Numbered from the stretch's first letter, positions 8,307 through 41,284 are shown. The stretch: 41,956 nucleotides of DNA from Candidatus Iainarchaeum sp. (GCA_028690725.1 JAQVAR010000001.1:1-41956); one strand, 5' to 3'. Notes: generated from the letters alone by a model not told the origin. Translations and numbers: made by a program.

Positions 8307-8308
8307 TT

Positions 8309-10506: not shown

Positions 10507-10533
10507 TAATCAAAACAAAAAAAATTCATAAAC

Positions 10534-10567: not shown

Positions 10568-10584
10568 AACAAAACTTTTTTATA

Positions 10585-10610
10585 TATTACTTAGTATTAC
10601 TTTGTATTAT
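10585..10610 (+). promoter_or_regulatory. Three phased 10-bp direct repeats (TATTACTTAG / TATTACTTTG / TATTATGG) between a TATA-like box and the RHH start codon; candidate operator
   Basis: Read directly from the sequence. TTTTTTATATATT at 10576-10588 is TATA-like, and the ATG at 10609 overlaps the third repeat. No Shine-Dalgarno motif is present, so the mRNA is probably leaderless. Confidence 0.45.
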
Positions 10611-10896: not shown

Positions 10897-10899
10897 ATA

Positions 10900-11292: not shown

Positions 11293-11316
11293 AAAAAAAA
11301 CAAAATTAAATAACAT

Positions 11317-11350
11317 ATAAACTTAATTACTTTTTCGTTTATTGCCAAAA
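11317..11350. repeat. 34-bp direct repeat, copy B (ATAAACTTAATTACTTTTTCGTTTATTGCCAAAA)
   Basis: Second copy of 10534..10567, located just upstream of apt. Confidence 0.8.
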
Positions 11351-11382
11351 CAAATAAAAATCCTTTTTATGCCGAAATATTT

Positions 11383-11934
11383 ATGACTGAGAGTATAAAA
11401 AATAAGATTAGAACTATACCAAATTTTCCAAAACAAGGAATAATGTTTAGGGATATAACAACATTGTTAAAAGATAAGGATGGTTTGAGAGAAGTAGTAG
11501 AAATACTAGAAAAAAAATACAAGGATATTGAATTCGATTATGTTGTTGGGATAGAATCAAGGGGTTTTATTATTGGAGGGATTTTAGCACACAAATTAGG
11601 AATAGGATTTATTCCAATTAGAAAAAAAGGAAAATTACCTTCAGAAGTAATCAAAGAAGAATATGATTTAGAATACGGAAAAGATGTTATAGAAATACAC
11701 AAGGATTCGTTAAAAAAAGGAGATAAGATTTTATTATTAGATGATTTGATTGCAACAGGAGGAACAGCATTAGCTTCTTGTAAACTAATAGAAAAAGTTG
11801 GCGCTATTGTAGAAGAATGCGCATCCATAATTGACTTACCAGAATTAGGTGGCTCAAAAAAAATTAATGATTATTTGAAAAAAAATGATGATGAAAAAAA
11901 AGTGTTTTCAATAGTACAATTTGAAGGAGAATAA
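11383..11934 (+). CDS. apt: Adenine phosphoribosyltransferase
   Basis: [36 protein letters not shown], and the PRPP loop [13 protein letters not shown]. Confidence 0.95.
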
Positions 11935-11951
11935 AACAAATTGGTGATTAA

Positions 11952-12692
11952 ATGATTGCAATTATTGGTGGTTCTGGTTTAGAAGATCCAGAATTGTTAA
12001 AAGAATCAGAAGAAATTATCATTGAAACCCCTTTTGGAAAACACTCTCCAATAAAAAAAGGTTTTATTGAAGGAATAGAAATTGCAATATTATCTAGACA
12101 TGGTTACAAACACGAATATTCCCCTAGTTCAATTCCATACAAAGCAAATATTTTTGCACTAAAAGAATTAGGAGCAAAAGCAATAATTGCTACAAGTGCT
12201 TGTGGTTCTCTAAGAGAAGAACTCGTTCCAGAAAGTATTAGTTTCCCATCACAATTCATTGATAGAACAACAAAAAGAGATTCTAGTTATACTGAATTTG
12301 GAAATGTTATACACGAAGGACATAGTGATCCTTTTGACAAAAAATTAAGAGAAATACTTGTAAAAAAAAGTAAAGAAATTGGAATAGAATATAGTGCTGA
12401 TACTACTCTTATAACAATAGAAGGCCCAAGATTTTCTACAAGAGCAGAAAGCGAGTATTTTAGAAAATTTGATTTTGATTTGATTAACATGACTACTGTA
12501 CCAGAAGTTTGTCTAGCAAAGGAGTTAAAGATACCATACCAAGTAATAAATTTGATAACGGATTATGATTGTTGGAAAGAAAATGAGGAAGCAGTTACAT
12601 TTGAAATAGTATTAGAAAGAATGAAAAACAATAGTGAAAAAGTAAAAAAAATTATTTTAAAATCGTTAAAAGAAATTGACAAAGAATTCTAA
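11952..12692 (+). CDS. mtnP: S-methyl-5'-thioadenosine phosphorylase (MTAP/PNP family)
   Basis: IAIIGGSGL, LSRHGYKHEYSPSSIPYKANIFALKELG, SACGSL, QFIDRTTKR, IEGPRFSTRAES, INMTTVPE, TDYDCW. A GGTGA Shine-Dalgarno motif lies 5 nt upstream. Confidence 0.9.
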   Translation: MIAIIGGSGLEDPELLKESEEIIIETPFGKHSPIKKGFIEGIEIAILSRHGYKHEYSPSSIPYKANIFALKELGAKAIIATSACGSLREELVPESISFPSQFIDRTTKRDSSYTEFGNVIHEGHSDPFDKKLREILVKKSKEIGIEYSADTTLITIEGPRFSTRAESEYFRKFDFDLINMTTVPEVCLAKELKIPYQVINLITDYDCWKENEEAVTFEIVLERMKNNSEKVKKIILKSLKEIDKEF

Positions 12693-23640: not shown

Positions 23641-26448
23641 TTGAAAAAAAATATTAAAAAAGAATTTGTTGCACAAGGAACAATAGAATATCTGACAATA
23701 ATAGGAGTAATTGTTGTTATTGGTTTGGTTGTTGTTAGCTTGTTAACAAATGTTTTTGATGATACACAAAATATTTCTTCTACAACAACAAAGATTAGTT
23801 CAATCACAGGAATAATTAGCATCAGTGAAACAATTGTTGATAATGAAGGAAATGGTTTAATTGTTTTATCAAACAATTCTAATGAAACACTAACAATAAA
23901 AAGTTTGAGTATTAATGGTGTTAACATAGATTATCCAAATACTATTTTGACTCAAAGTGTTGAAAAAATTTTTAGTTTAAATAGTTTGGATGATAACTGT
24001 TCTTGTGTTGGTTTTGAAGGTAAAATGAAAACTTGTGAAATAACAATTTATTATACTTCTAAATATGGTTTAGAAAAACAGGTTACAACAAATATTGTTG
24101 TTGATTGTGTTGATGAAGCAACTCCAAAAAATTTATCTAATTTGATTCTACCAACTTCATCAAGAACATATGAAATAATGTTTAACATAAAAAATTCTTC
24201 CACTAATTTACATTTAACTGATTTTAATATTAATTGTAATGATGAAACACATAATTTTACTAACCAAGAATCTCCTACATTAATTGATTTTAATGGAGGG
24301 GTTTATTCTTGTGATTTTTCAAAATTAGGTTATGATTCAAATAACATAACAATAAACGCTAATAGTGACAAAAATATTGATGTTTATTTAACTCAACAAA
24401 GTGAATTATTATCAAATTGTGGTACATTAGATGCTGAAAAAATTTATTTTTTGGAAAATGATATTGGTTCTGGCGAAAATTGTTTGATAATTGAATCAAA
24501 TAATATATTAATAAATGGTAACAGTCACACAATAACAGGAAATATTGTCGCAGATGGTGCAGAAGGAATAGCTGCTTATACAGGATTATCGTTATCTAAC
24601 ATTAATGTTGTTGGAACAGTAAGTGCAATCGGAGGAGGAGGCTCAAACACAGCAGGCTCAGGAGGAACAGTAACAGTAACTAATAATTCTAATATAACAA
24701 CAATAAATACAACGGGAGGATGGAACACGTATAGTACTCCTGGTGAAGGAGGAGCAGTAACAATAACAGATTCTAATGTAGAAACAATAACCACAACTGG
24801 GGGAGCAGGACATTTTAATCGACCAGGTGAGATAGCTGGGGCAGTAACACTTACTAATTCAATTATAGAGACAATAACAGCAAAAGGAGGAAATGGCACA
24901 TATAGTGGTGGAAAAGCAGGTGGAATAATAACAGCAAATAATTCAGTTATAATAACTATTGATGCAACAGGCGGATCAGGAGGACACCAAGGTGCTGGAG
25001 GAGCGGGAGGAACAATAACATTAACAGATTCTAATATTGTGACAATAATTTCTTTAGGAGGAAATGGCGCTTATGGGGCAACAGCAGGAGCTGGTGGAAC
25101 AATAACATTAACTGATTCAAATACAACAACAATAACAGCAACAGGTGGATCAAGTAGTGGACCAGGCGGAGCAGGAGGAACAATAACATTAACTAATTCC
25201 AATATAAAGAAAATAAATACTATTGGTGGGAATGGAAATTATGGAGGAGTAGGAGGAAATGTTAATATAATTTCCCAAAATTTAGATTTATCAAATATTG
25301 AGATAGATATTAATTATGGATCTGGAGACCCACATCACGATTCAGGAACACTTATACTCAATTTTTCAAATTCTTTTACAGATACTGGAGCTAGTTATAA
25401 CAAAAATTTAAAAGGATTAAAAATTGTTCGTAGTGGAGTCGGAGAAATTTATTGGAATGAGACCAGTATATGCGAAGGAACACCAGATAATTCAAATTGT
25501 TCTCAATGGGGTGGGTCTTGGAATGAAGAACAATGTACTAGATATGAAAACCGCGGAGGACAATGTACTTGGCCAGAACATTCTTGTATAGATGTCAGTG
25601 GAGGAGATTGCAGTAATGCTTATGATGAATCAGAATGTCTTAATAACATATACCCAACAGGATGCGACACTTGGATTCCTGGAGTTTGTGAAGATGTAGG
25701 CGGAGGAAGTTGTACAGGAGCATGGGATGAATGGGAATGTATTTATATGAAATATCCTTCAGGATGTAATTGGACACCAAATCCTATTTCTTGCATGTAT
25801 GCTCCCGGGCCAGGTTGTGTAGAAGGATCATTTTCTTGTGATGATTGTATTAATGAATCTAGTTGTAGTGTTTGTGGTGGATGGTGGGGAAGCGAAGGAG
25901 GAATTTGTGAAGGAACAGGAAGCGGATGCGAAGGAGCAACAAATAGTATGTGGTGTAATGATTATTCAGGTTGTGAATGGTCGTTAGGTTGGGAAGAAGG
26001 AATTTGTGAAGGAACAGGAAGCGGATGCGAAGATTTAAACAACTATAATAGTTGTTGGAATTATTCAGGTTGTTCATGGTTCGGAGACCCTTGTACTGGA
26101 ACAGTTACTTGCGAAGCACAAATTTCACTTGAAGCTTGCCAAGAAATAACTGGTTGCGCATACTCTGCAAGTAGTATTGATTCATCCTCTTTTACAAATT
26201 TATCAAATAATATTATAATTGAACAAAATTCTGTTTATTTAAATTCTACTGCTATACCTTCTTTAAATATTGATGCTAATATTACTCTTTATTTAACTGG
26301 ATTAGAAATTACAAATCCACAAGTATTAAAAGATGGAATTGAATGTAATTCTCCTAGTTGTGAAATATTAAGTTATGATTCTGAAATAATTATATTTAGA
26401 GTAACAAGTTGGGATAATGCAATATATACTATTGCAGAATCATCATAA
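23641..26448 (+). CDS. Giant pilin-like surface protein: class III signal peptide, the same N-terminal module, Gly-rich beta-helix-like repeats, and a Cys-rich repeat domain
   Basis: TTG start 5 nt after AGGTG. MKKNIKKEFVAQGTIEYLTIIGVIVVIGLVVV. Repeats of the form GG-G...GAGGTITLTDSN--TI. About 30 Cys between 25471 and 26157. Confidence 0.85.
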   Translation: MKKNIKKEFVAQGTIEYLTIIGVIVVIGLVVVSLLTNVFDDTQNISSTTTKISSITGIISISETIVDNEGNGLIVLSNNSNETLTIKSLSINGVNIDYPNTILTQSVEKIFSLNSLDDNCSCVGFEGKMKTCEITIYYTSKYGLEKQVTTNIVVDCVDEATPKNLSNLILPTSSRTYEIMFNIKNSSTNLHLTDFNINCNDETHNFTNQESPTLIDFNGGVYSCDFSKLGYDSNNITINANSDKNIDVYLTQQSELLSNCGTLDAEKIYFLENDIGSGENCLIIESNNILINGNSHTITGNIVADGAEGIAAYTGLSLSNINVVGTVSAIGGGGSNTAGSGGTVTVTNNSNITTINTTGGWNTYSTPGEGGAVTITDSNVETITTTGGAGHFNRPGEIAGAVTLTNSIIETITAKGGNGTYSGGKAGGIITANNSVIITIDATGGSGGHQGAGGAGGTITLTDSNIVTIISLGGNGAYGATAGAGGTITLTDSNTTTITATGGSSSGPGGAGGTITLTNSNIKKINTIGGNGNYGGVGGNVNIISQNLDLSNIEIDINYGSGDPHHDSGTLILNFSNSFTDTGASYNKNLKGLKIVRSGVGEIYWNETSICEGTPDNSNCSQWGGSWNEEQCTRYENRGGQCTWPEHSCIDVSGGDCSNAYDESECLNNIYPTGCDTWIPGVCEDVGGGSCTGAWDEWECIYMKYPSGCNWTPNPISCMYAPGPGCVEGSFSCDDCINESSCSVCGGWWGSEGGICEGTGSGCEGATNSMWCNDYSGCEWSLGWEEGICEGTGSGCEDLNNYNSCWNYSGCSWFGDPCTGTVTCEAQISLEACQEITGCAYSASSIDSSSFTNLSNNIIIEQNSVYLNSTAIPSLNIDANITLYLTGLEITNPQVLKDGIECNSPSCEILSYDSEIIIFRVTSWDNAIYTIAESS

Positions 26449-26458: not shown

Positions 26459-26571
26459 TAGCCCCACCCAGATTTGAACTGGGGTCCCAAGCTAATTCCG
26501 AGCAATTTTGCTAGAGCTTTTTTTAAAAGCTCTCCAGAAGCTTGCATCCTTGACCACTAGACGATGGGGCT
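26459..26571 (-). tRNA. tRNA-Gln (anticodon CUG) with a 40-nt intron at the canonical 37/38 position (intron 26494..26533); no encoded CCA
   Basis: Hand-folded. Acceptor AGCCCCA/TGGGGCT (A1-U72), U8, D arm GTCT-AGTGGTCAA-GGAT, anticodon stem CAAGC/GCTTG, loop TTCTGG[intron]A, T arm CCCAG-TTCAAAT-CTGGG. BHB: helix GAGC/GCTC, bulge GGA, 4-bp helix TTCT/GGAA, bulge TTA. Confidence 0.9.
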
Positions 26572-26636: not shown

Positions 26637-26651
26637 ACTTGTAATAAAAAA

Positions 26652-26785
26652 CTTTTCCGTGAACGCTTTTCAAAAGAAAAGAGTTCTTAAACCAAAAAAA
26701 CTTTTCCGTGAACGCTTTTCAAAAGAAAAGAGTTCTTAAACCAAAAAAACTTTTCCGTGAACGCTTTTCAAAAGAAAAGGGTTCC
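26652..26785. repeat. 49-bp tandem repeat, about 2.7 copies (CTTTTCCGTGAACGCTTTTCAAAAGAAAAGAGTTCTTAAACCAAAAAAA)
   Basis: Units start at 26652, 26701 and 26750. Copies 1 and 2 are identical by eye; copy 3 diverges after about 30 nt. Each unit carries the inverted repeat CTTTTC-AAAA-GAAAAG. Confidence 0.9.
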
Positions 26786-26824
26786 TACACTAGAAAAATT
26801 TTTTATTTTTTTGCTTTGCAAAAG
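26784..26824. repeat. 41-bp direct repeat, copy 2
   Basis: CCTACACTAGAAAAATTTTTTATTTTTTTGCTTTGCAAAAG. Flanks the far side of the 49-bp array. Confidence 0.85.
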
Positions 26825-29497: not shown

Positions 29498-29683
29498 ATG
29501 GAAAATAGCAAAAATGACAAAATGGAAGAGATGATTCTTAATTTAAGAAAAAAGATGACAGAAATAGATGAAATGACTAAAGAATTAGAAAAAAAAAGAT
29601 TTTTAGAGAAAAAAAATAATCCAACAAAAACAAAAAAAATTTTAGAAGAAATAAAAGTACCCGCATTAGAATTATTAAAATAG
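29498..29683 (+). CDS. Hypothetical small K/E-rich coiled-coil protein (61 aa)
   Basis: The only evidence is the ORF and its tight spacing to the next gene. I recognise no motif. Confidence 0.35.
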   Translation: MENSKNDKMEEMILNLRKKMTEIDEMTKELEKKRFLEKKNNPTKTKKILEEIKVPALELLK

Positions 29684-29694
29684 GATTGGATTAT

Positions 29695-30036
29695 ATGTTA
29701 AAAGTAAATGAAAAGAAAATAGGAATAAAAGTCAGATTTGCAAACACTTCTTGGCAAAGATTGAAAGGACTAATGTTTGAAGACACAAAAAAATTTGATT
29801 ATGCATTAATATTTGATTTTCCAAAAGAAAGCATTATTGGTTGTTCAATACACATGATCTTTGTCTTCTTCCCAATAGATGTTTTATTTTTAAACAAAGA
29901 AAAGAAAGTTGTTGACAAAATAACATTATTACCTTTTACACCAAATTATACCCCAAAAAAACCAGCCAAATACGTTATTGAAATGCCAAATGAAAAAGCA
30001 AAAAAAATAAAAATAGGCGACAAAATAAGTTGGTAA
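29695..30036 (+). CDS. DUF192 (COG1430) family protein
   Basis: SWQRLKGLMF...YALIFDFPKES..IHMIFVFFPIDVLFLNKEKKVVD matches the DUF192 pattern (RxxGLM ... M ... piDiiF). The ATG at 29695 is preferred over the TTG at 29686. Confidence 0.7.
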   Translation: MLKVNEKKIGIKVRFANTSWQRLKGLMFEDTKKFDYALIFDFPKESIIGCSIHMIFVFFPIDVLFLNKEKKVVDKITLLPFTPNYTPKKPAKYVIEMPNEKAKKIKIGDKISW

Positions 30037-30056
30037 AAAAATAATTTTTTTAAGAA

Positions 30057-30088
30057 GAAAGAAAGCGATTAAAAAGATGCTTTCTTTC
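30057..30088 (+). terminator. 10-bp perfect hairpin GAAAGAAAGC-(12 nt)-GCTTTCTTTC followed by a pyrimidine-rich tract
   Basis: Read directly from the sequence, 20 nt after the DUF192 stop. Its function as a terminator is inferred. Confidence 0.35.
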
Positions 30089-30280
30089 CTCCTTTGCCTT
30101 CTTGCCTTTACCTATGTAACGTAGAAATCGGGGTGATAACCCAATGTTATAATAGAATAAGTAATATATAATGGTTAGTGGTTCGAAAAATTAACCATTT
30201 TAAAAATTTTTTAAAAAAAAATACGTTAATTGTCTTAATTTTAATTTATTTTTTAAAGTAGTTTTTTTTCAAATAATCAT

Positions 30281-31684
30281 ATGATGAATAACATTGGGTT
30301 TTGTGTTATTGAAACAGATTTTTCTAAACAAATTAGTATTTGTAAAAGTGGGCAAATTGTAAAAAAAAGGGACAAAAACTATTTTTTGTTAGATTTTCCA
30401 ATTTTCAATGAGAAAGAAAAAAAAATTTTTTCAAATATTTCTGAAAATTTAAAAGAAACAATAAAATATGTTAAAACAAAATCAGACATTTATTTTCTTA
30501 TAAAAGAATTTTGTTTAGAAAATTATGTGTTGTTAAAAAAAGAACAAAGAGAAAAAATTTCACTAGTTTTAGAATGGGAAATGCTAGGAAATAGCATTTT
30601 AGAACCATTATTGAAAGATCCTGATTTTGAAGAAATTGTTATCAATGGAAAAGATAAACCTTTAATGTTATACCATAATATTTTTGGTTGGCTTACAAGC
30701 AATATTTATTTTAATTCTGACGAAAAAATAAAAACAATAATAAACAAAATTTCTTCACCATTAGGAAGACAAATCAGTTTTAATAATCCAATTTTAAATG
30801 CAACTTTAAGTAATGGTTCAAGATTGAATGCTTCAATGGATCCAATAGCATTCACAGGAATAAATGTTACTATAAGAAAATTTAAAGAAAATCCTTTAAC
30901 ACCAACAAACATAATAAATTTTAACACTATTAACACAGAAGCAATGGCTTTTTTGTGGTTGGTAATGCAAACTTCATCCTCAATAATGGTTTGTGGAAAT
31001 ACTGGTTCTGGAAAAACGACTACATTAAATTCATTATTTTGTTTTTTGCCAAAAGATGAAAGAATTATAGTAGTAGAAGAGACCCCAGAAATTGTTTTAC
31101 CACAAGAACATATAGTAAAATTGAATACTGCAGAACAATTGAATATTGGATTAGAAAAACTAATAGAAAATACTTTTAGAATGAGACCAGACAGAGTAAT
31201 AGTTGGAGAAATTAGAAGTAAGAAAGAAGCACACGCATTCATTAATACCATGTTAGCAGGACAAGCAAAAGGAAGTTATGCTACTTTTCATGCTGAAAGT
31301 GCTGAAGATGCTTTAGAAAGACTAAATACTTTTGGTATTGAAAAAAATGCTTTGAAAACACTTGATTTAATAATAGTTCAAAAAAGAATTACAAAAATTG
31401 ATAACAAAAAAAGTAGGAGAGAAGAAAGAAAAATAACAGAAATATGTGAAGTAAAAAAAGATTGCGGAGAAATAAAATTAGAAAAATTATTTCTTTTGAA
31501 TTATTCTAACGGATTAATTGAATTAAAAAATGATTCTAAAAGATTGAAAGAAAAAATAAAACAAACTTTTTCTTGCAAAGAAAAAGAATATTACGAATTA
31601 TTAAAGGAAAAAGAACAAATTTTGAAAAATCTTGGAGAAGGAATTTCTTTCAAAGAATTTTTTGAACTGGCTTATAACGAATAA
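30281..31684 (+). CDS. Type II/IV secretion-family ATPase (archaeal type IV filament assembly ATPase, FlaI/EpdL/TadA-like)
   Basis: Walker A VCGNTGSGKTTTLNSL, Asp box RIIVVEETPEI, Walker B RPDRVIVGEIR, His box GSYATFHAES. Confidence 0.9.
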   Translation: MMNNIGFCVIETDFSKQISICKSGQIVKKRDKNYFLLDFPIFNEKEKKIFSNISENLKETIKYVKTKSDIYFLIKEFCLENYVLLKKEQREKISLVLEWEMLGNSILEPLLKDPDFEEIVINGKDKPLMLYHNIFGWLTSNIYFNSDEKIKTIINKISSPLGRQISFNNPILNATLSNGSRLNASMDPIAFTGINVTIRKFKENPLTPTNIINFNTINTEAMAFLWLVMQTSSSIMVCGNTGSGKTTTLNSLFCFLPKDERIIVVEETPEIVLPQEHIVKLNTAEQLNIGLEKLIENTFRMRPDRVIVGEIRSKKEAHAFINTMLAGQAKGSYATFHAESAEDALERLNTFGIEKNALKTLDLIIVQKRITKIDNKKSRREERKITEICEVKKDCGEIKLEKLFLLNYSNGLIELKNDSKRLKEKIKQTFSCKEKEYYELLKEKEQILKNLGEGISFKEFFELAYNE

Positions 31685-31721
31685 AGAATAAAAAAACAAA
31701 ATGATTAAATTCTTTTTAAAT

Positions 31722-33173
31722 TTAATAATCTTTTGCAATGTAAACTACTTTAGTGGCTTTTTTTCCACAAATAACACACTTTTTATTTCCAATAAAATTT
31801 TCTTTAACATCAATTCTTGTCCCCCTTATTTTTCCACCGGATTCTTTTTCAATTATTTCAGCACAACCCAAACCATCTTTTTCAACACTACAAAAATTTG
31901 CTCTTGCAATTCCTCTTCCAACAATTTTTTTTATTTCATTAATATTTTTAACATCTTTTATTAATCCATCAAAATTATTAATTGCTTTTTTCTTCAAATT
32001 TTTACTTAATTCAAAACCATTTTTTTCTATTTCTTTTAACAAATCTTTTTCATTAATTAAAACTTTTTTTTCTGTATCTCTTCTATATAATAAAAACTTT
32101 TTTTCTTTTAAATCACGAGGCCCTATTTCTATTCTTAGTGGAACGCCTTTCATTTCCCAATAATAAAATTTTTCTCCAGGTCTTTTATCACCATCATCTA
32201 ATTCAACTCTGTAATTAGCTTCTTCTAATTCTTTTTTAAATTTAAAAGCTTTTTTTAAAACATTTGGATCTTTTTCTGAAAGAATAGGAATAATTACTAT
32301 TTGTTTTGGTGCTATTTCAAAAGGAAATTTTAATCCTTTATTATCACCATGAGTTAATATTACCGAAGCCATTATTCTTGAAATACAAGGTCCATAACAA
32401 GTTGTAAAAGGAGTTTTTTCAACCTCATTTTTATCAAAATATTTTACTCCAAAAACTTTTGGAAAATGATTATTTATCATGTGTGTGCTAGGCTGTTGTA
32501 CCACTCTTCCTTGAGGAGTAATAGCGTCAGCACCAAATGTTCTTCCAGCACCAGCAAATTTATCCCAAGCTGGTCTTTCAAAAACAATTGTTGGAACACC
32601 AAATATTTCAAAAACAACTCGCTTAGTAGTTTCAATATCATCTAAAACGCTTTGAAAAGCCTCTTCTTTTGTTTCAAAAGCACAGTGGGTTTCAATCCAA
32701 TAAAATTCTCTTGATCTCAAAAAAGGCCTTGTTGATTTTGTTTCATACCTATAAACATTTGCTCTTTGATATGTTTTAAAAGGCAAATCTTTATAAGAAC
32801 GAATCCATAATGAAAACATTGTATAAAAAGCTGTTTCAGAAGTTGGTCTGAGAGCTAATCTTTCTTCTAATTTTTCGTTACCACCTTTTTCAACCCAAAA
32901 AACTTCAGGAGTAAAACCAGCAATGTGTTCTGATTCTTTTTGAAAATATGATTCTGGAATCAAAGAGGGAAACCAATAATTTTTGTGACCTCTTTTTTTC
33001 AAATCTTTTTCAAAAAAATCATACATTAGCTCCATGCATTCAACGCTCCAAGGTTGAAAAACAAGAGCCCCTTTAACACCATACCTGATATCTGCTAGTT
33101 CTGCTTGTTTTATTATTTCAGTATACCATTCGCTTGGTTTTTCAGAATAATCAGGTAATTTTTGAACAGCCAT
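31722..33173 (-). CDS. proS: Proline--tRNA ligase (archaeal/eukaryotic type)
   Basis: PSEWYTEIIKQAELADIRYGVKGALVFQPWS, class II motifs (FRSREFYWIETH, GRVVQQPSTH), C-terminal Cys cluster and terminal Tyr (...CVICGKKATKVVYIAKDY). The ATG at 33171-33173 is preferred over the TTG at 33197. Confidence 0.95.
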   Translation of the reverse strand: MAVQKLPDYSEKPSEWYTEIIKQAELADIRYGVKGALVFQPWSVECMELMYDFFEKDLKKRGHKNYWFPSLIPESYFQKESEHIAGFTPEVFWVEKGGNEKLEERLALRPTSETAFYTMFSLWIRSYKDLPFKTYQRANVYRYETKSTRPFLRSREFYWIETHCAFETKEEAFQSVLDDIETTKRVVFEIFGVPTIVFERPAWDKFAGAGRTFGADAITPQGRVVQQPSTHMINNHFPKVFGVKYFDKNEVEKTPFTTCYGPCISRIMASVILTHGDNKGLKFPFEIAPKQIVIIPILSEKDPNVLKKAFKFKKELEEANYRVELDDGDKRPGEKFYYWEMKGVPLRIEIGPRDLKEKKFLLYRRDTEKKVLINEKDLLKEIEKNGFELSKNLKKKAINNFDGLIKDVKNINEIKKIVGRGIARANFCSVEKDGLGCAEIIEKESGGKIRGTRIDVKENFIGNKKCVICGKKATKVVYIAKDY

Positions 33174-33320
33174 TAAAACCAATAAAATTGAACACAAAAA
33201 GGGTTTTAAAGATTGTTTTTCAATTGAAAAAGCTTATTCAAAATTAGCAATATTAAAATTTGTTCAGACAATTGACGATTTTCTACAATATTTTTTAAAT
33301 GATAAAAAAATGTTTTTTTT

Positions 33321-34154
33321 ATGAAAAAAGAAAAAAAGGATGAAAAAAATATTGAATTAATTAAAAATATTTCAAAAAAATCAATTGTAAAAGAAAAAAT
33401 TTTGAAAAAAGCAAATGTTAGAGAAAAAGAATTTGAAAATTATAAAAAAAAATGTTTTTCTTATAGTATTATTTTTTCTCTTTTTGTATTAATGTTTAGT
33501 TGGTTATATTTATATGATATTATTTTAAGTTTTGGAATAATGTTTTTTGTATTTACAATAATTTTTTTAATTGGAATAAATTTACCATTTATTAAACACA
33601 AAAAATATACTAAAAAAATTGAATCAGAAACAGCTGGTTTTTTAACAAACCTTATTATTGAATTAAAAGTTGGAAAAGATTTGTTAAGTGCTATTAAAAA
33701 ATGTTCTTTAGAAAAAGAAAATATTGCAAAAGAATATGGGGTTGTTCTAAACCTTGTTGAAAATGGATTATCTTTTAGAGAAGCACTCTTATTAATGAAC
33801 AAAAAATTTAATTCTTTGAATATAAAACGAACAAATAGTAATTTGTATAATATTTATCAACATGGGAATGATGTTTTTGGATTGAAAAAATTTGCTGATG
33901 AACTATTGTTAAGACAAAGAATTGAAAGTAAAGAATTTGGTGGAAAATTAGTTGTGTATGCGTTAGTTTTTATTGCTGTTTCAGCCATTGTTCCAGCAAT
34001 GTTCGCGAGCTTTATTCTAATAGGGAGTTATTTTATGCAAATACAATTTAGCGCATTACAAATTTTTTTTATATTAGTAATATTGTTTCCAATAATAGAT
34101 TTGTGTGTTTTGATATCAATCAATTCAAAAACACCAATATTTTTGAGGAGATAA
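33321..34154 (+). CDS. Type IV filament platform protein with a single T2SSF domain (TadB/TadC/EpdJ-K-like)
   Basis: Transmembrane hairpin, a soluble helical domain (FLTNLIIELKVGKDLLSAIKKCS...ENGLSFREALLLMNKKF), then two C-terminal transmembrane segments. This is the GspF/TadC half-protein topology. Confidence 0.7.
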   Translation: MKKEKKDEKNIELIKNISKKSIVKEKILKKANVREKEFENYKKKCFSYSIIFSLFVLMFSWLYLYDIILSFGIMFFVFTIIFLIGINLPFIKHKKYTKKIESETAGFLTNLIIELKVGKDLLSAIKKCSLEKENIAKEYGVVLNLVENGLSFREALLLMNKKFNSLNIKRTNSNLYNIYQHGNDVFGLKKFADELLLRQRIESKEFGGKLVVYALVFIAVSAIVPAMFASFILIGSYFMQIQFSALQIFFILVILFPIIDLCVLISINSKTPIFLRR

Positions 34155-34207
34155 ATTAATCAAAATATTTTGATTTGAATTTTATTGTTTATTAAGAGTT
34201 GATTTGA

Positions 34208-35149
34208 TTGGATGCAGTAGATTTTTTTAAAAATTTTTTTGAAATTATTTTTGGAAAAGAAAAAATAATTAATTTTGAAGATACTCTAATTGTAAATGAA
34301 TCAAGATTCAAAAAAATAGAAAAATTTATTTTTGCTTGTGTTTTAGAAGGAATTTTTCTAACTATTTTTTCAATGATCATATTATTTTTTATTAACTTTG
34401 AAATAAACAAAACAATTTTTATTTCAATACTAATTTTTTTTGTTCCTTTTTTAATAAATTTTTTGTGGCAAGATCTTTTTTTTGAAAAGAGAAAAAGAAA
34501 AAAAGAATCTTTATTACCAGAGTTTTTGTTAGAAGTAAGCGTTTTTTGTGATGAAAATTCAATAATAAAAAATGTTGAAAAAATGAGTAAAATTGATATT
34601 TCTTTAATAAAAAATGATTTTGAAAGGGTTGATAGAGAAATAAAAAATGGTTCAAGTGTAAAAGAATCTTTTGAAAGAATGAAAAAATTAAATAAAAGTA
34701 AAACTATTAACAGAGTAATAGATATTTTTTTACAATGTTATGAAAATGGTTTAAAAATGTCTTTCTTATTAAAAGAAACTGCTGAAGATTTGATGGAAAA
34801 TAATGCTATTTTGAAAGAACAACAAGCAGTAATGCTTGTAACAAAATATACTTTGTTATTATCATCAGCATTAATTGTTCCAAGTATTTTGGGAATAATA
34901 ATTGGTTTGGTTAATAATCTTAATTTTGATTTTGCAGAAGGATTTGAAATTGGTTTAAGTGCTGTTGAAAAAAAAGAACTTTTTTCATTTTCTGTGTTAG
35001 GAACCACAATATATATTATAGAATTTGCTTTGCTAAGCAGTTTTTTCTTGGGCTTACAAGAGGGAAACAAAAAACAATTTTGGATTTATGCAATGATAAT
35101 TGTTCCAATTGCATTAATTTGTTTTTTTCTAGCACAAACAATGGGTTAA
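34208..35149 (+). CDS. Second single-T2SSF-domain platform protein (TadC/EpdJ-K-like)
   Basis: Same topology. LPEFLLEVSVFCDENSIIKNVEKMS...IKNGSSVKESFERMKK...IDIFLQCYENG. TTG start; no in-frame ATG nearby. Confidence 0.65.
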   Translation: MDAVDFFKNFFEIIFGKEKIINFEDTLIVNESRFKKIEKFIFACVLEGIFLTIFSMIILFFINFEINKTIFISILIFFVPFLINFLWQDLFFEKRKRKKESLLPEFLLEVSVFCDENSIIKNVEKMSKIDISLIKNDFERVDREIKNGSSVKESFERMKKLNKSKTINRVIDIFLQCYENGLKMSFLLKETAEDLMENNAILKEQQAVMLVTKYTLLLSSALIVPSILGIIIGLVNNLNFDFAEGFEIGLSAVEKKELFSFSVLGTTIYIIEFALLSSFFLGLQEGNKKQFWIYAMIIVPIALICFFLAQTMG

Positions 35150-35215: not shown

Positions 35216-35968
35216 ATGGTTAAAAAAAATGAAAAAAAATATTTTGAGATTGTTGAAAAAGAAAAAATGAATTTGAATGGTTTTACATTAATAGAAGGTT
35301 TTCCAGATGTTGGTTTAGCTGGAACAATTGGTGCAAGATATTTATCAGAAAAACTTGATTTTGAACAAATTGGTCATATTGATTCATTATTGTTTTCACC
35401 AATAATTAGAATTAATAATGGCATACCAATGCACCCAGTTAGAATTTATGCTAATAAAAAATATAAAACAGTTATTGCTTTATCAGAACAGATTATTCCA
35501 AATAATATTGCAAGCATAATGGCAAAAGAATTAGTTGAATGGATAAAGAAAAAAGGAATAAAACAGGTTATTGCTACATCAGGAATAAAAAATCCTACTG
35601 GAGAAAGCGTGTATGCTTTTGCAAGTGATGAAAAATCAAAAAAAATTATTAAAAAAAATAAGATAGAGTTAATTAATAATGGCATTACATCAGGAGTAAC
35701 TGCAATGCTAATGCTTTATTTAAAAGATAATAATATTATTGCTTTTTGTTTAATTGGAAATGCAAGAAACAATGCGGATTATTATGCTGCTTCAGAAATT
35801 GTTAAAGCATTTTGCAAACTAATTAATGTTAATATTGATGTAAAACCATTATTAAAAGAAGCAAAAGAATTAGAAAATGCTATAACAAATCATTTGAAAA
35901 CACTTGAAACACAAAAAAATATGGGAGAAGAATCAGAAATAATAAAAAGCCCACCAATGTATACATAA
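35216..35968 (+). CDS. PAC2-family proteasome assembly chaperone-like protein
   Basis: FTLIEGFPDVGLAGTIGARYL matches the PAC2 N-terminal signature. GGTG Shine-Dalgarno motif 5 nt upstream. Length is typical of archaeal PbaA/B-like proteins. Confidence 0.75.
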   Translation: MVKKNEKKYFEIVEKEKMNLNGFTLIEGFPDVGLAGTIGARYLSEKLDFEQIGHIDSLLFSPIIRINNGIPMHPVRIYANKKYKTVIALSEQIIPNNIASIMAKELVEWIKKKGIKQVIATSGIKNPTGESVYAFASDEKSKKIIKKNKIELINNGITSGVTAMLMLYLKDNNIIAFCLIGNARNNADYYAASEIVKAFCKLINVNIDVKPLLKEAKELENAITNHLKTLETQKNMGEESEIIKSPPMYT

Positions 35969-36035: not shown

Positions 36036-39000
36036 TTATTTTTTCAAATTATTTTTATTTTTCTTTTGTGTTAACACGAAAGAAATTGTTAGGAATAATG
36101 TAATAAACAAAATCAAACTTGGTATTGTTTGTGGTAATGATGGAATATTAAATCCAGTTCCTTCTTGTTGTCCAATATTAAATGTCATTGGGTTTCCCGC
36201 TGTTCCTGAAACATTACCTTCTTTATCAACACCATAATACGCACCTTGGTCTTTGAATGCTTGATTTAATGGAATTTGCATTGAATTTTCTGGATACCAT
36301 TGACCAGTATTAGGATCAAACCAAAATGAACCATTTGTCCCTTGTGCTGTTCTAAGTGTTTCTGCAGGACCATTATTATAACTTAATTTTGGAATACCAT
36401 TGTCTGCGCTAAAATCAAGAGTATGTGTTTTTCCATCAGCAGTCCTAAAAGATATTTTTCCGTCAGCATCTTGTGTTACACCACCAACTATTGGAGAATC
36501 AACCAAAATTTTTCCAGTTTCTTTATCTGTTACTCTAAAATAATCTACACATTCTCCTGTTTCAGGATCTCTTTCAGCATAAAATTCAAATATTTTTCCA
36601 TCAGTAGTAAATTGTGTAAATGGCCCCAAATGTTTCATTGAAGTATTAAAATTATCTACTCTTTGTAATCCTAGTTGATCATTAGGATAGCCTTGGGCTT
36701 CTAATTCTAATGCTGGTTGTTCACAATCTGTTTCAGGATCTAATATTGAAGATAATTTTGCTTTTAAACCCGAAACTTCTTTTGAACTTAAAACAGCTTC
36801 TTTGTGTTGTCTCAACCAAATTATTATTTCATTTGTTTCCGGATTTAATACTATTGAACCATGTTCAAAAGCCATTCCAATAAATTTTCCAGCATCAACT
36901 ATTCTGTTAGCATCTTGTTCTAACCTAGAATCCCAAAAACCATTTATTATAAATTTTGCATTTATTGTTCCATAAACAGGAACAGTTCCTTCTAATTGTA
37001 TTTTTCCATCTCTCACAAAAACATTACCATATTTTTCAGTATTAATCGCTTTTAAGTCTCCGAACACTTGTGTTAACTCGTCACCATTATAAGTTATGCC
37101 TGATTGTTTTTTTATTGCATCTTGAATACAATTTCTTACAAGTGCTTCTTTCACTCTTACTTCTCCCAAAACATTTAATTCAAAAACAGTTTCTGTTGTA
37201 TTAGGCATAGAAGAAATTGAAACAGTTTTTGGAATTAGTTCAGCAGGAATTTTGTTTTCTTGTATTGTTAAACCAATAATTTCTTTTTTATCTTCAACAA
37301 TTTTTTTACCATCAATTAACAAATCCCCGTTATCAAAATCTTTTACAATTTCAATATTACCATCAGTTGTTAGTGATTTTCCACTAGTCTTTAAACCAGT
37401 AGGAAGTAAAGTATCTTTAAACCAAATATAAAATATTTCTTTTCCTGTTACACCACCACTAATCGGAGGTAATAATTCTATTGTTGCTTGTAAAATATTA
37501 TCGTTTTTTGCTTGGTTAGCAAAATTTTCAAACTCTTCTTTTATTTTTCCAATTGAATCAGCAACAGGATTATCTTGAGAAGCAAGATCATCAATATTTT
37601 TGCTTAAATCAGATATTGTTGAAGATACTCCTTCGCTTGAAAGAGACTCTTTTGTTTTACTATTAACTTGTTGAGCTGGTGGAGGAGAATAAAAATGAAT
37701 ATAATAACCATCAACATCATCAACACAATCCTGTAATTTTGGTGCAATTAAAACTTGTTGTGCACCAGTAGCAAGTAATCCAATACCAGGATTAATAAAA
37801 TAACCCACTGATTCTAAACTAGCAGTAACAAAACCAGTATACTTGCCAGCCCAACCAAGATTATTTTCTCTTAACACTTGGTCACAAGTAGTTCCTTCTC
37901 TTTTAGCTTGTGACAAATTAATTTCTTGGCCTTCAATGTCTGCAGTAGAACCCTTTATGTTAGAACCATGAGTATAAACTATTAATGTTGTGCCGTCCTC
38001 TTTAATAGTTTCAGGATCAATTGCTTCAACAATAAATGATTTAATATTTACTGGTGATTGAATATCAAATCTTGAATAATCATCATTCGAATTAATTGAC
38101 ATAGTACAACCAGAACAATTTTCATTATGAGAATAAAAAGCAATATTTTTTACTTCATCTCTCATAATTCCTCCATCTAAACCATATTCCCCAGAAAAAG
38201 CTCTTAACTTATCACCAATTTGGGGAGAAAGATTATCAGCAATTTCTTTAGCAAGATAATTTGGAAAAAAAATGAAACTATTAATTACTTTTGAAAATAA
38301 TTCTCCTTGATCAGAACCCTCATTAGCATAAAAATCAGTAAAAGATCTTTTGTAAACATCATCTATTCCTTGAGAAATAGTCATAGTGGTCCAAGAATCA
38401 GGAAGCATGAAAGCAGAAAATTTTTCATTACCAAAACCACGTTTAACATTCCAAAGCATCATTGGACCAATCGCCACTTTATAAAAAGCACTTGTATTTG
38501 CTTTAAAAGTAAAATAATCTTGAATGATTTTATTTTCACTTGCAAAAAGACTATCTAATGCATTAAGAGATCTTCTAGAAACAAAATCTGCTTTCTCTCT
38601 TAAACCAGCATCCAAATCAGAAAAATTTATTAGAGCAGTATTTGGTCTAGAAACTATTCTACCATTAGTAATAATATTCGCAAAATCCTCAGGCATTAAA
38701 TCTTTTACATAATCATATTTAGAAGAATAAATATCAACTGTTCCAAGAATACCTGGAGAATCCTTAATGTAATTAACAGTTGAAGCATTCAAAGGCATTT
38801 GCCCAACACCAGGAATATTAACAGTATACAAAGAATCCCCTAATTTTGCAACATATGATTGTAAATCAGCAACGTTTACTCCAGCAGCTTCTAATTTAGA
38901 AGGAGTTGGTTTGAATAACTTAATTCCAGTATGACCAGTAGCACCTATTGCACTACCAAGTTCATACTGATAATCAAAACTACCAATAGCACCAGCATAA

Positions 39001-40538
39001 TCATCCCAATTTCCTTTTTCAGCAAAAGGAGTCAATATTCCTTTAGTAAAATTATATGGTTGAGAAGAAGTAATATCAACAAAACCACTATCAGCAGTAA
39101 AGCCAGCTTTTTTTACTGCTAAACCTTGTAAACCAGTAAGATCAGGATTTTTTTGAATCCAAGCAGGAAAATCAAGGAAAGTAACATCATCCCAATCCTT
39201 AACTTGTTTAGAAACAGTTTTAGCATAAGACATTAAATCATCATATGTTTGAGCCGAACTCAAAAAAGCTTTTTTTGCAGCACTCATTTGAGTTGAACTA
39301 GCATTCGCATAAGCTTTTACATCTTGTAAAGCTCTAAAAAAAGCTTTTTTTTGATCAGGAGTTAAATTATTCAAAGGACTATTCGGACCAAGCAAAGCAT
39401 CAGTATAACCAGCAGCACCTGAAGAAAAAGCTTTTCCACCAACAGTAAACTCTGTAAAATATTCTCCAAAACCATTTTTTTTAATAAGTTGTTGATAATT
39501 ATCAATTCTATTTTTTCCTAAAAGAGCAGACGGAACATCCCCCAGAGCATCTCTTCCACTTCTAAAAACCTTTTCATTAAAAAATTTTACTACTCTATTT
39601 TGAGCACCACCAGCAGGACCACTGCCAGTCAAATTTAACCATCTACCAGCAGAATTTAATAATGCAGGACCAAAACTAGTAACAACAATATCAGCAGAAT
39701 ACCATTGATTATATATTTTGTCAAAAGCAGAATAACTAGAAATAATACAAGAAGCATTATTACAATTAGTAGCATTCTTAGTAGTATATTGATTTGTTCT
39801 AAAAGAATTTGGTATTTGATCAGTTGGATCTAATTTAGTTGTTTGAATTGCAAAATCATTATTAATTTCATTTTCTACACCCTCTTCAGAATCATCACTC
39901 AAATCATAACTACTAAAAACTTGGTTTTGCATCCTAACATATTCTTCTTCGCTAACACCACTAATTCCTTGTTTTGCTAAATCTTCAAAACGAGAAGTAT
40001 TATCAACAAACATATTTGTTAGTCCTTTACCAGAAGTTCTGTATGCTAAACCATTACCATAAACCCTACAATCTTCTTGAGCCGAATCAACACATGTTCC
40101 CACTCTCAAAGTATCATCTAACACTAAACCAATACCAAAAGGACCAGAAACAGTTCTACTATCAAGAAAACTAAATCTATCAGCAGAAGCTGCTTTAGAA
40201 GGAGCAGATTGTTTTACTGCTGTCTCACCATCATTATCTTGTCCAATTAATTCTAAATCATCTAAATCAATACCAGTTGCTTTCTCATTCTTATCATCAT
40301 TAATTTCTTTACCCTGAAAATTATCTTTTGTTAAATTCATTATTTGTTTTGATTCAAGAGGAGTAAGAGAAGAAATATCACATCTAAATTCATTCGAAGA
40401 ATCTTGAGAAACTGTTTCCTCAAAAAAAATATTATTTGAAACGGAATTATTTTCTAAAGAAAAGGCAATAGCGGGATTACTTGATAACAAACAAAATGTT
40501 ATAAAACCAACTAATAATCCTTCCAACATTTTATTCAT
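36036..40538 (-). CDS. 1500-aa secreted protein with a C-terminal membrane anchor; candidate S-layer or major envelope protein
   Basis: Uninterrupted 4.5-kb ORF. Signal peptide MNKMLEGLLVGFITFCLLSSNPAIA|FS. C-terminus ...GFNIPSLPQTIPSLILFITLFLTISFVLTQKKNKNNLKK. I recognise no catalytic or repeat family. Composition (G/S/T/D/A-rich, K-poor) differs from neighbouring genes. Confidence 0.8.
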   Translation of the reverse strand: MNKMLEGLLVGFITFCLLSSNPAIAFSLENNSVSNNIFFEETVSQDSSNEFRCDISSLTPLESKQIMNLTKDNFQGKEINDDKNEKATGIDLDDLELIGQDNDGETAVKQSAPSKAASADRFSFLDSRTVSGPFGIGLVLDDTLRVGTCVDSAQEDCRVYGNGLAYRTSGKGLTNMFVDNTSRFEDLAKQGISGVSEEEYVRMQNQVFSSYDLSDDSEEGVENEINNDFAIQTTKLDPTDQIPNSFRTNQYTTKNATNCNNASCIISSYSAFDKIYNQWYSADIVVTSFGPALLNSAGRWLNLTGSGPAGGAQNRVVKFFNEKVFRSGRDALGDVPSALLGKNRIDNYQQLIKKNGFGEYFTEFTVGGKAFSSGAAGYTDALLGPNSPLNNLTPDQKKAFFRALQDVKAYANASSTQMSAAKKAFLSSAQTYDDLMSYAKTVSKQVKDWDDVTFLDFPAWIQKNPDLTGLQGLAVKKAGFTADSGFVDITSSQPYNFTKGILTPFAEKGNWDDYAGAIGSFDYQYELGSAIGATGHTGIKLFKPTPSKLEAAGVNVADLQSYVAKLGDSLYTVNIPGVGQMPLNASTVNYIKDSPGILGTVDIYSSKYDYVKDLMPEDFANIITNGRIVSRPNTALINFSDLDAGLREKADFVSRRSLNALDSLFASENKIIQDYFTFKANTSAFYKVAIGPMMLWNVKRGFGNEKFSAFMLPDSWTTMTISQGIDDVYKRSFTDFYANEGSDQGELFSKVINSFIFFPNYLAKEIADNLSPQIGDKLRAFSGEYGLDGGIMRDEVKNIAFYSHNENCSGCTMSINSNDDYSRFDIQSPVNIKSFIVEAIDPETIKEDGTTLIVYTHGSNIKGSTADIEGQEINLSQAKREGTTCDQVLRENNLGWAGKYTGFVTASLESVGYFINPGIGLLATGAQQVLIAPKLQDCVDDVDGYYIHFYSPPPAQQVNSKTKESLSSEGVSSTISDLSKNIDDLASQDNPVADSIGKIKEEFENFANQAKNDNILQATIELLPPISGGVTGKEIFYIWFKDTLLPTGLKTSGKSLTTDGNIEIVKDFDNGDLLIDGKKIVEDKKEIIGLTIQENKIPAELIPKTVSISSMPNTTETVFELNVLGEVRVKEALVRNCIQDAIKKQSGITYNGDELTQVFGDLKAINTEKYGNVFVRDGKIQLEGTVPVYGTINAKFIINGFWDSRLEQDANRIVDAGKFIGMAFEHGSIVLNPETNEIIIWLRQHKEAVLSSKEVSGLKAKLSSILDPETDCEQPALELEAQGYPNDQLGLQRVDNFNTSMKHLGPFTQFTTDGKIFEFYAERDPETGECVDYFRVTDKETGKILVDSPIVGGVTQDADGKISFRTADGKTHTLDFSADNGIPKLSYNNGPAETLRTAQGTNGSFWFDPNTGQWYPENSMQIPLNQAFKDQGAYYGVDKEGNVSGTAGNPMTFNIGQQEGTGFNIPSLPQTIPSLILFITLFLTISFVLTQKKNKNNLKK

Positions 40539-40582: not shown

Positions 40583-41149
40583 TTAATATGGTTTCAAGAC
40601 ATTAATAATTGTTAGCAATGGTGGCTCACTAACAACCCCATAAAAAATATAAACAAATAAACCAAGAGGAACCCAATTAAAAAAGAAAAATAATAAAAAC
40701 AAAAATAATGATACTGAAGAAAAAATCCCAATAAAAATTTTTATGATATCAGAATATTGTTTTTCTTTTTGATTCTCAATAATAAAACTGGAAAAAAATT
40801 CAAAAAATAATAAAACAATTGAAAGGATTATTGTTACAATTAATATTCTAATTAATGCAAGACAAATCATTAAAAAAAATTCTAAAAAATTGTATTCTAA
40901 TTCTGGTTCAGTTGGAAATGCCAAACTAGCCCCAATAAAAACAAAATACATATAAAAAGAAAATATTAAAATAAAAATTATTATTAAATTAAGCAAAAGA
41001 CAAGATTTTATCCAAGAAAAATTATACTTTTCAACAATTTTTTTCCTCAAAGGATCAAAAAGCTTACAAATAATAAACATTATTATTGAAAGAGGAATAA
41101 CAAATTTTAAAAAATCGATTAACCCAAAAAACAATTCTAAAAAAACCAT
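40583..41149 (-). CDS. Hypothetical polytopic membrane protein, co-oriented directly upstream of the 1500-aa gene
   Basis: About 5-6 hydrophobic segments. The ATG at 41147-41149 is preferred over the TTG at 41197. I recognise no family signature. Confidence 0.5.
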   Translation of the reverse strand: MVFLELFFGLIDFLKFVIPLSIIMFIICKLFDPLRKKIVEKYNFSWIKSCLLLNLIIIFILIFSFYMYFVFIGASLAFPTEPELEYNFLEFFLMICLALIRILIVTIILSIVLLFFEFFSSFIIENQKEKQYSDIIKIFIGIFSSVSLFLFLLFFFFNWVPLGLFVYIFYGVVSEPPLLTIINVLKPY

Positions 41150-41284
41150 TTTTATCAATAGAAATAAACGTTTTTTTAGTATAATAATCTTTTGCAACTA
41201 CAAACAAAAAGTAATACAATAAACAAAGCAATAAAAACACAATAATCTTATAAGTTTATAATATTTTAATAAATTGGTGGATTA

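Follow-up and report, generated by a model that had tools for sequence, protein, structure and literature searches.

Among the described type IV filament (TFF) systems, those of the Epd-like and Tad kinds possess a pair of platform genes with one domain each, an arrangement that has been put down to a fission (PMC6668835). Two tadC-like genes are found in many clade 2 loci too (Makarova 2016, PMC4858521), and two platform genes have been reported in subsystem 4A of the DPANN archaea as well as in System 1, that of the Epd pilus of Methanococcus maripaludis (EpdL, EpdJ/EpdK, EppA) (bioRxiv 10.64898/2026.04.22.720090). In this work a locus with two platform genes is analyzed in a 41,956-nucleotide (nt) stretch of DNA deposited as Candidatus Iainarchaeum sp. 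(GCA_028690725.1, JAQVAR010000001.1:1-41956), which is referred to below, at its full length, as the window. Between positions 30281 and 35149 the window codes for one assembly ATPase and two half-size platform proteins, with a prolyl-tRNA synthetase gene (proS) on the opposite strand between them. We think it likely that this region is the conserved assembly core of an archaeal type IV pilus-like machine of a DPANN archaeon. About 60 related loci, numbered with an L (e.g., L002 and L062), were fetched and compared with it.

The ATPase and the Platform Proteins

The ATPase gene (30281–31684, plus strand) codes for a 467-amino-acid (aa) type IV filament assembly ATPase of the T2SSE/PilB-FlaI-TadA superfamily, which matches Pfam T2SSE with an E value of 1.7e-40. 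The four T2SSE boxes attributed to it in a preliminary description of the same DNA were all located by motif, namely Walker A (GNTGSGKTT, aa 239–247, nt 30995–31021), the Asp box (ERIIVVEETPE, aa 260–270, nt 31058–31090), Walker B (RPDRVIVGEIR, aa 302–312, nt 31184–31216) and the His box (SYATFHA, aa 332–338, nt 31274–31294), and they are retained in 105–118 of 118 homologues. About 78 orthologue clusters with at least 54% identity come from metagenome-assembled genomes (MAGs) of Ca. ainarchaeum, Iainarchaeum or Diapherotrites, and several sources annotate the core orthologues as "FlaI/FlaJ".

Comparison of the ATPase with the NCBIfam models gave the FlaI equivalog NF058587 as the best match, with 248 bits (cutoff 550); the scores with the TadA-family and VirB11 models were far under their cutoffs, and the BasE model gave 128 bits (cutoff 1000). 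The best matches in the PDB were afGspE (167 bits), CpaF (159 bits) and FlaI (158 bits). In an unbootstrapped neighbor-joining (NJ) tree of 315 core columns, in which the references FlaI, afGspE and CpaF were fragments taken from the PDB alignments, the window-type DPANN ATPases formed a clade of their own, on the same side as CpaF and outside the pair of FlaI and afGspE (45.5% mutual identity). The DPANN ATPases are 32–35% identical to each of the references (FlaI 34.5%, CpaF 33%, afGspE 32%). The clustering with archaellum FlaI which the preliminary description had named as the outcome that would speak against it was thus looked for, and the ATPase fell outside. Because of the sub-cutoff FlaI score and the separate clade in the NJ tree, the enzyme is, as far as its sequence goes, distinct from FlaI and no archaellum ATPase. 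In related DPANN lineages (43–48% identity) a 4Fe-4S ferredoxin domain is added to the same ATPase (proteins P0079, P0085–P0088, P0094 and others; L062, 885–2597), and the window ATPase does not carry it.

Platform protein 1 (plat1; 33321–34154, plus strand; 277 aa) has four predicted transmembrane helices and one cytoplasmic T2SSF helical bundle, which is flanked by two of these helices on each side. Platform protein 2 (plat2; 34208–35149, plus strand; 313 aa) likewise has one T2SSF bundle flanked by predicted transmembrane helices. The latter just passes the Pfam T2SSF gathering cutoff (26.1 bits versus 25.2), and T2SSF is present in all of its 101 orthologues listed; for plat1, a precomputed T2SSF match is found in most orthologues. 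Over the T2SSF domain the profiles of plat1 and plat2 proved to be homologous (hhalign 97.6%, E = 2.9e-12). A sequence search of the platform profiles against the PDB gave only a marginal PilC match (E = 0.038) and noise, and a fold search was needed. AlphaFold2 (AF2) models with predicted local distance difference test (pLDDT) values of 85.3 for plat1 and 85.2 for plat2 had the EpsF/OutF/PilC cytoplasmic domains as best Foldseek matches, with a probability of 1.0 and a template modeling (TM) score of 0.70–0.74 for plat1 and a probability of 0.99–1.0 for plat2; for both models taken together the target TM range versus EpsF/OutF/PilC was 0.63–0.74. Orthologues, profile comparison and predicted fold therefore agree on two single-T2SSF-domain proteins. 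The preliminary description had counted a failure of the membrane proteins to match T2SSF models as a point that would tell against it; plat2 passes, and plat1 is supported through its orthologues, the hhalign result and the fold. A type IV filament core of one ATPase and two single-domain platform proteins, as had been proposed, is borne out by the domains and folds, and the ORFs were found at the coordinates that had been given.

Fused and Split Forms of the Platform

The profile of the plat1 family was used for an exhaustive search. Of the 150 top-ranking representatives, about 100 were single-domain proteins (230–340 aa), and 31 had two matching stretches (490–588 aa). On these 31 fused proteins the plat1 profile matched the N-half strongly (103–194 bits) and the C-half weakly, and the plat2 profile matched the C-half strongly in most (33–205 bits, more than 100 in 27 of the 31), its match to the N-half being weaker in every case; the same pattern as to which half scored higher was obtained in 31/31, with no exceptions. 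The fused platforms are annotated from MAGs of Candidatus Diapherotrites and Candidatus Micrarchaeota. One of them, of 567 aa, is found at an orthologous locus, L062, in the order DUF192, ATPase, fused platform; other distant relatives have a split platform.

As read from these alignments, plat1 and plat2 are one conventional FlaJ/PilC-type protein cut mid-way, with the original order kept. Since they are colinear with the halves of the fused relatives, including that of the orthologous locus L062, the split appears as a local and labile fission (or, in reverse, a fusion) within this DPANN family. The split platform had been regarded as characteristic of the Epd and Tad systems. This view could not be upheld, two platform genes being present in clade 2 and in subsystem 4A as well, and the fused form at L062; because the split is labile here and shared with clade 2 and 4A, it cannot assign the locus to Epd or Tad.

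The proS Gene between ATPase and Platform

An intact gene for an archaeal/eukaryotic-type prolyl-tRNA synthetase (31722–33197, minus strand) lies between the ATPase and plat1 genes. It matches TIGR00408 with 468 bits (cutoff 437) and contains the Pfam domains tRNA-synt_2b, HGTP_anticodon and ProRS-C_1; its true start is probably the ATG near 33173. The 3′ flank of the ATPase gene could be seen in 35 distinct loci, and in 32 of them the next gene, on the same strand, is that of the platform. The ATPase and plat1 frames often overlap or abut in the relatives (in L002, ATPase 10001–11410 and plat1 11407–12192), as would be typical of an operon.

At this junction proS was found in three lineages: the window; L017, with proS (2822–4252) on the opposite strand; and L004/L005, with proS on the same strand (L004, 11421–12917). 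The L017 proteins are 68% (ProRS) and 61% (ATPase) identical to those of the window, and those of L004/L005 48% and 69%, respectively, so that the ProRS identities are out of step with those of the ATPases. Because the former do not follow the latter, independent insertions of proS or gene replacement at the junction are suggested. In the three nearest relatives (ATPase identity 76–77%) the junction is without proS. From these comparisons, the ancestral order is read as an ATPase-plat1-plat2 operon, and proS as a derived, late and sporadic insertion occurring in both orientations. A search around proS for inverted or direct repeats, such as an inversion or a mobile element might have left, gave only AT-rich noise; the junction sequences of proS showed no conservation in relatives. 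The antisense proS thus does split the ATPase from the platform genes in this genome, as had been noted before, and it is no design feature of the system, 32 of 35 loci being uninterrupted.

With proS on the opposite strand in between, co-transcription of the platform genes with the ATPase gene is impossible in this genome, and they must therefore have a promoter of their own. A TATA-like TTTTTTAAAT box was read directly from the sequence ~24–33 nt 5′ of the plat1 ATG. It mirrors a conserved TTTTTAAA box 5′ of the ATPase gene, and we infer only that TTTTTTAAAT might serve as the promoter of plat1 and plat2.

Candidate Substrates and Components Not Seen

A motif scan for K-x-x-A/QGTIEYL followed by a hydrophobic stretch (Gln at +1 and Glu at +5 of the cleavage site, marked here by a slash) retrieved only two open reading frames (ORFs) of the window, 20742–23537 and 23641–26448, both on the plus strand and 4–9 kb 5′ of the ATPase gene. 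Candidate substrate 1 (20742–23537, 931 aa) has the signal KKIIA/QGTIEYL, then ~20 hydrophobic residues; a pilin-like module of ~130 aa is followed by Flg_new and GLUG repeat adhesin domains (GLUG, 1.3e-30). The Pfam model Class_IIIsignal matched its N-terminus with 18.9 bits, under the cutoff of 23.7 (E = 0.0014). Candidate substrate 2 (23641–26448, 935 aa) has the class III signal KEFVA/QGTIEYL and the same pilin-like N-terminal module, followed by Gly-rich beta-helix-like repeats and a Cys-rich region, a body without Pfam match. The two proteins have in common an N-terminal module of ~160 aa (signal, helix and a small Cys-bracketed domain) with 39% identity, and their adhesin bodies are unrelated to each other. 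The Gln +1 pilin-like substrates upstream that had been mentioned in the preliminary description are thus these two ~930-aa proteins, with class III signals carrying Gln +1 and Glu +5. Gln +1 together with Glu +5 is the signature of EppA-processed pilins (PMC4371748).

In relatives, homologous pilin-adhesin genes occur at variable positions and often directly 5′ of the ATPase gene, where L006/L009 have a gene for a GLUG protein, L010 two genes, L036 a tandem pair and L060 one. In the window and its relatives, the class III-signal proteins near the core are large adhesin fusions only (550–930 aa). This recurrent, variably placed linkage of pilin-adhesin genes supports, and does not prove, a functional tie to the core. 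Among the long relatives L010 is the nearest, and directly 5′ of its ATPase gene there is a pilin-like gene (7990–9635) whose body is of leucine-rich repeats (LRR) of the BspA type; it carries TAG at the codon of Gln +1 (MKNYYFKKA*GTTEYL) and is otherwise open over ~547 codons. The TAG could be a fresh pseudogene mutation, a population variant or an assembly error.

No Pfam match to Peptidase_A24 was obtained among the window ORFs scanned, and a motif scan for GxGD-type peptidases gave nothing relevant in the window or in ~50–60 related loci. The membrane protein encoded at 40583–41197, considered as a peptidase candidate, has neither a GxGD motif nor a Pfam match. Gln +1-specific and general FlaFind-like scans of the window and related loci revealed no small free-standing class III ORF beyond the known genes; small ORFs beside the core in distant relatives were considered as pilins and rejected. 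Archaellum accessory genes (ArlF/G/H/CDE/X) and archaellins were not seen among the Pfam matches of the window ORFs or in the syntenic loci. As regards the window, the absence of peptidase, small pilin and archaellum genes applies to its 42 kb; within them the Pfam, GxGD and signal scans agree with the earlier statement that peptidase and small pilin are missing.

Host and Conserved Neighborhood

The window has a G+C content of ~25% and an archaeal-looking gene content, with a class-I archaeal-type ProRS, a PAC2-family protein, an Ogg-HhH glycosylase, a cis-prenyltransferase (UPPS), TruD and a geranylgeranyl reductase-like protein. The nearest homologues of the core proteins are all from MAGs labeled Candidatus ainarchaeum, Iainarchaeum, Diapherotrites or plain "archaeon". 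On account of these labels and of the archaeal gene content, the host is identified as a DPANN archaeon of the Iainarchaeota/Diapherotrites group. The window sequence is carried by landfill metagenome DNA runs.

In Iainarchaeota-like genomes the order is UPPS (minus strand), rubrerythrin-like gene, Ogg, Hsp20 (bracketed in the consensus order), small coiled-coil ORF, DUF192 and ATPase, continued by plat1, plat2, PAC2, a gene for a ~1500-aa surface protein (minus strand) and one for a ~200-aa membrane protein (minus strand). The core of ATPase and platform persists in DPANN relatives with ATPases only 42–46% identical to that of the window. The DUF192 (COG1430) gene (29686–30036, plus strand; Pfam DUF192, 1.2e-17) is the conserved 5′ neighbor, kept even in distant DPANN relatives, and the PAC2-family gene (35216–35968, plus strand; PAC2, 2e-37), coding for a proteasome assembly chaperone-like protein, is the conserved 3′ neighbor of the platform genes. 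Both flanks are kept in several distant relatives; PAC2 is missing from L020, L062 and L063, and DUF192 from L020 and L063.

Immediately before DUF192 there is a 61-aa coiled-coil ORF ending in EEIKVPALELLK (29498–29683, plus strand). In L010, L021 and L022 the ORF in front of DUF192 is likewise small and has the C-terminal EEIKVPALELLK motif; in L002, L004 and L008 an ORF of about this size occupies the place. On the other side of the core, the minus strand codes for a secreted protein of ~1500 aa that has its membrane anchor at the C-terminus and lacks any Pfam domain (36036–40538) and for a ~200-aa polytopic membrane protein without Pfam match (40583–41197). Proteins 41–71% identical to these two are encoded just 3′ of PAC2 in nearly all relatives, and the pair may represent an S-layer or major surface protein of the clade.

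Comparison with Known Systems and Alternative Explanations

Three features of a TFF core are present at the locus: a T2SSE ATPase with its four boxes, adjacent T2SSF platform proteins, and substrates with class III signals; a fourth, a prepilin peptidase of the A24 family, was looked for in the window and in ~60 related loci and not found. In its working the system would be like other archaeal type IV pili, and it most resembles the minimal two-platform DPANN loci already cataloged (System 1 or 4A). With the DPANN minimal TFF loci (4A; "FliI, TadC plus dark-matter pilins") it has in common the DPANN host, the ATPase with two platform genes, the adjacent large adhesins and the poorly recognizable pilins; it differs from subsystem 4A in that the PilY-like 4A adhesin was not recognized in the window. 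Membership of the Tad, archaellum and bindosome groups fails on the defining features that were tested.

Several results weigh against a pilus-like core. With Pfam T2SSF, plat1 alone scores 21.5 bits and stays under the gathering cutoff (25.2). As far as it was seen, the system is incomplete, with neither a prepilin peptidase nor a small major pilin in the window or in ~50 related loci. The ~930-aa proteins are tied to the core by their signal motif and by a recurrent, variable proximity. The change between split and fused platforms may have gone in either direction, by fission or by fusion. Finally, RNA runs containing the window sequence were looked for and none was found, the runs recovered being landfill metagenome DNA only.

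Membership of the Epd group is possible. The Epd pilus has, like the window, one ATPase with two single-T2SSF platform proteins, which are essential in Epd, and Gln +1/Glu +5 class III substrates; adhesion is presumed for it, and its major pilins can lie elsewhere. It would follow from a true orthology (clade 1/System 1) that the two platform genes go back to the ancient fission common to TadB/TadC and that processing depends on an EppA-type peptidase with nine transmembrane helices. In favor of this are the two single-domain genes, the substrate signature of EppA, the report of System 1 in DPANN (bioRxiv 10.64898/2026.04.22.720090) and the position of the DPANN ATPase clade in the NJ tree, on the CpaF side and outside FlaI and afGspE. 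However, the fused platforms at the orthologous locus in close DPANN relatives, of which the window genes are the colinear halves, point to a local fission or fusion and not to an inherited ancient split, and split platforms are also found in clade 2 and subsystem 4A. The window also lacks EppA, short Epd-type pilins, an adjacent TadZ- or FlaH/KaiC-like second ATPase and the rest of the 11-gene epd cluster, and by percent identity its ATPase stands about equally far from CpaF, FlaI and afGspE. The gene order at the locus, ATPase, N-half, C-half, also speaks against it, Tad having a C-like TadB and an N-like TadC (PMC6668835). Taking both sides, a true Epd orthologue is a tentative and rather doubtful explanation of the locus.

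The same half-size platform pair next to a TadA-like ATPase (CpaF, 159 bits, ~33% identity) recalls the Tad/Flp pilus (type IVc; TadA/CpaF, TadB, TadC). The Tad genes are arranged in the order tadA-tadB-tadC. Unlike Tad/Flp, the window has the N-half before the C-half, is of an archaeal genome, shows none of TadZ, the secretin RcpA, TadV and Flp among its Pfam matches, and has an ATPase no nearer to CpaF than to FlaI or afGspE.

A serious, if unlikely, alternative to a pilus-like filament is a pseudopilus or bindosome-like surface display, in which the core would anchor the large class III-signal adhesins without a long filament of small pilins. The Sulfolobus bindosome (BasE/BasF) is comparable in its large non-pilin proteins with class III signals, presumably handled by an ATPase/platform pair. 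The restriction of class III proteins near the core to adhesin fusions of 550–930 aa, the lack of small pilins in any related locus scanned and the weak BasE match of the ATPase (128 bits) are consistent with such a display, and widespread functionalized TFF machineries using binding proteins with class III signal peptides (SPIII) have been proposed in a 2026 preprint. On the other hand, the BasE score is far under the cutoff of 1000, and the window substrates are repeat adhesins (GLUG, beta-helix-like), whereas those of the bindosome are sugar/solute-binding proteins. The absence of small pilins says little, archaeal major pilins being typically stand-alone genes elsewhere (PMC4858521), and the N-terminal module of the adhesins has the look of an entire pilin domain, as would suit minor or tip pilins in a real filament.

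It is very improbable that the locus is a disrupted or decaying remnant in which the insertion of proS has uncoupled the ATPase from the platform genes. The position of proS on the opposite strand and its absence from the closest relatives would agree with decay, but the three core ORFs are of full length and have preserved their catalytic boxes and conserved residues; the arrangement recurs in a second lineage, L017, the platform genes of L004, which come after a same-strand proS, are intact, and the TATA-like box lies at the usual distance 5′ of plat1. A reduced archaellum (motility) core is scarcely credible: the superfamily, the order of ATPase then platform, the best NCBIfam match (FlaI) and the "FlaI/FlaJ" labels of orthologues are shared with ArlI/ArlJ (FlaI/FlaJ), yet the FlaI score is 248 bits against 550, the ATPase clade is outside FlaI and afGspE, the platform is split, archaellins and ArlF/G/H/CDE/X (arl/fla accessory) genes are missing from the window and syntenic loci, and the Gln +1 substrates are adhesin fusions, in agreement with the preliminary description, which had set the locus apart from the archaellum.

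A Conserved RNA-Like Element 5′ of the ATPase Gene

The 245-nt spacer 5′ of the ATPase gene has 72–85% nucleotide identity in relatives whose ATPases are only 58–77% identical. A conserved non-coding element of ~110 nt is located there on the minus strand (30041–30148), divergent from the ATPase gene. It consists of a 5′ hairpin of the consensus CGGG-UUAUCAC-CCCG, with UGGG in the copy of the window, of a purine-rich stretch that is invariant, and of a terminal hairpin of 11–14 bp, after which a U-rich stretch follows. A TATA-like box is found near 30165–30176, ~25 nt 5′ of the 5′ hairpin.

The invariant 20-mer of the element occurred once each in 39 metagenome contigs, 38 of which have true copies of the element. 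On every contig that includes the ATPase start, the element was found 5′ of this start in a fixed orientation, the 20-mer ending ~140–270 nt before the ATPase alignment, and this position is kept even with pilin-adhesin or other genes inserted between DUF192 and the element; the copy of L022 is diverged and L008 has none. Over both helices, standard pairs amount to 99.5% on the minus strand versus 82% on the plus strand, and the terminal helix of 11 pairs is 100% paired through G-C/G-U and A-U/G-U alternations. Because these alternations would give mismatches on the other strand, the element is assigned to the strand opposite the ATPase gene. A coding function was rejected (no start codon, indels not multiples of three), as was a tRNA or a known Rfam family (no match). 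A 13-nt repeat common to the element region and the ATPase start looks like chance, since it is not conserved. The element is probably a previously undescribed orphan small RNA gene of ~110 nt, sharing a divergent promoter region with the ATPase gene.

Other Features of the Window

A gene for tRNA-Gln(CUG) with a 40-nt intron after position 38 (26459–26571, minus strand) was detected by ARAGORN with introns allowed, and had been missed by the default tRNA scan and by Rfam; conserved stretches seen there in the relatives are explained by the tRNA-Gln exons. In the spacer between the tRNA-Gln and UPPS genes there is a 49-nt tandem repeat of 3.2 copies with 94% matches (26646–26803). The geranylgeranyl reductase-like FAD oxidoreductase (17927–20674, 915 aa) contains an intein with a LAGLIDADG homing endonuclease, and its orthologues in relatives have ~380 aa and no intein. 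Finally, a surface-glycan biosynthesis cluster (629–10306) codes for FkbM-type methyltransferases, GT2 glycosyltransferases, a Wzx-like flippase and an NAD-dependent epimerase/dehydratase, and a GDP-mannose dehydratase-like gene was identified in it by eye. This cluster could supply glycans for pilins or for the S-layer.

Proposed Mechanism and Significance

In the type IV pilus-like machine proposed here, a hexameric ATPase of the PilB/FlaI/TadA type would hydrolyze ATP at the cytoplasmic face and power the membrane platform. The latter would be a heteromeric (heterodimeric) assembly of the two half-size T2SSF proteins plat1 and plat2, replacing the single two-domain FlaJ/PilC/TadC protein. 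A prepilin peptidase encoded elsewhere would cleave the class III-signal substrates before Gln +1, and the machine would draw the cleaved substrates out of the membrane and assemble them into a filament or pseudopilus on the cell surface, in which the large pilin-adhesin fusions may be the minor or tip adhesins. The role is most likely an adhesive one, probably in the attachment of the DPANN cell to a host or surface, and motility is unlikely. A report on Methanococcus pili describes DNA uptake (PMC10133366); such a role is conceivable for the window core.

More speculatively, and with a low probability in our view, the near-universally syntenic core of DUF192, small RNA, ATPase, split platform and PAC2 might be a minimal unit displaying interchangeable giant Gln +1 pilin-adhesin fusions, with the RNA as its dedicated regulator. 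If this were true, the GLUG, LRR or beta-helix fusion proteins would be host- or surface-capture devices of Iainarchaeota-type DPANN.

The locus represents a clear natural case of a platform gene that is fused or split at the same orthologous position. It bears on the origin of half-platforms of the TadB/TadC type, and it cautions against the use of a split platform as a classifier of Epd/Tad ancestry. The genomes of DPANN archaea are very small, and a life spent attached to other cells is assumed for these organisms. Since the pilus core is kept with the same neighborhood across a DPANN clade of this kind, it is a good candidate for an attachment apparatus. Leads that can be tested are offered by the variable pilin-adhesin fusions and by the conserved RNA-like element; the rest of the system is expected in such genomes.

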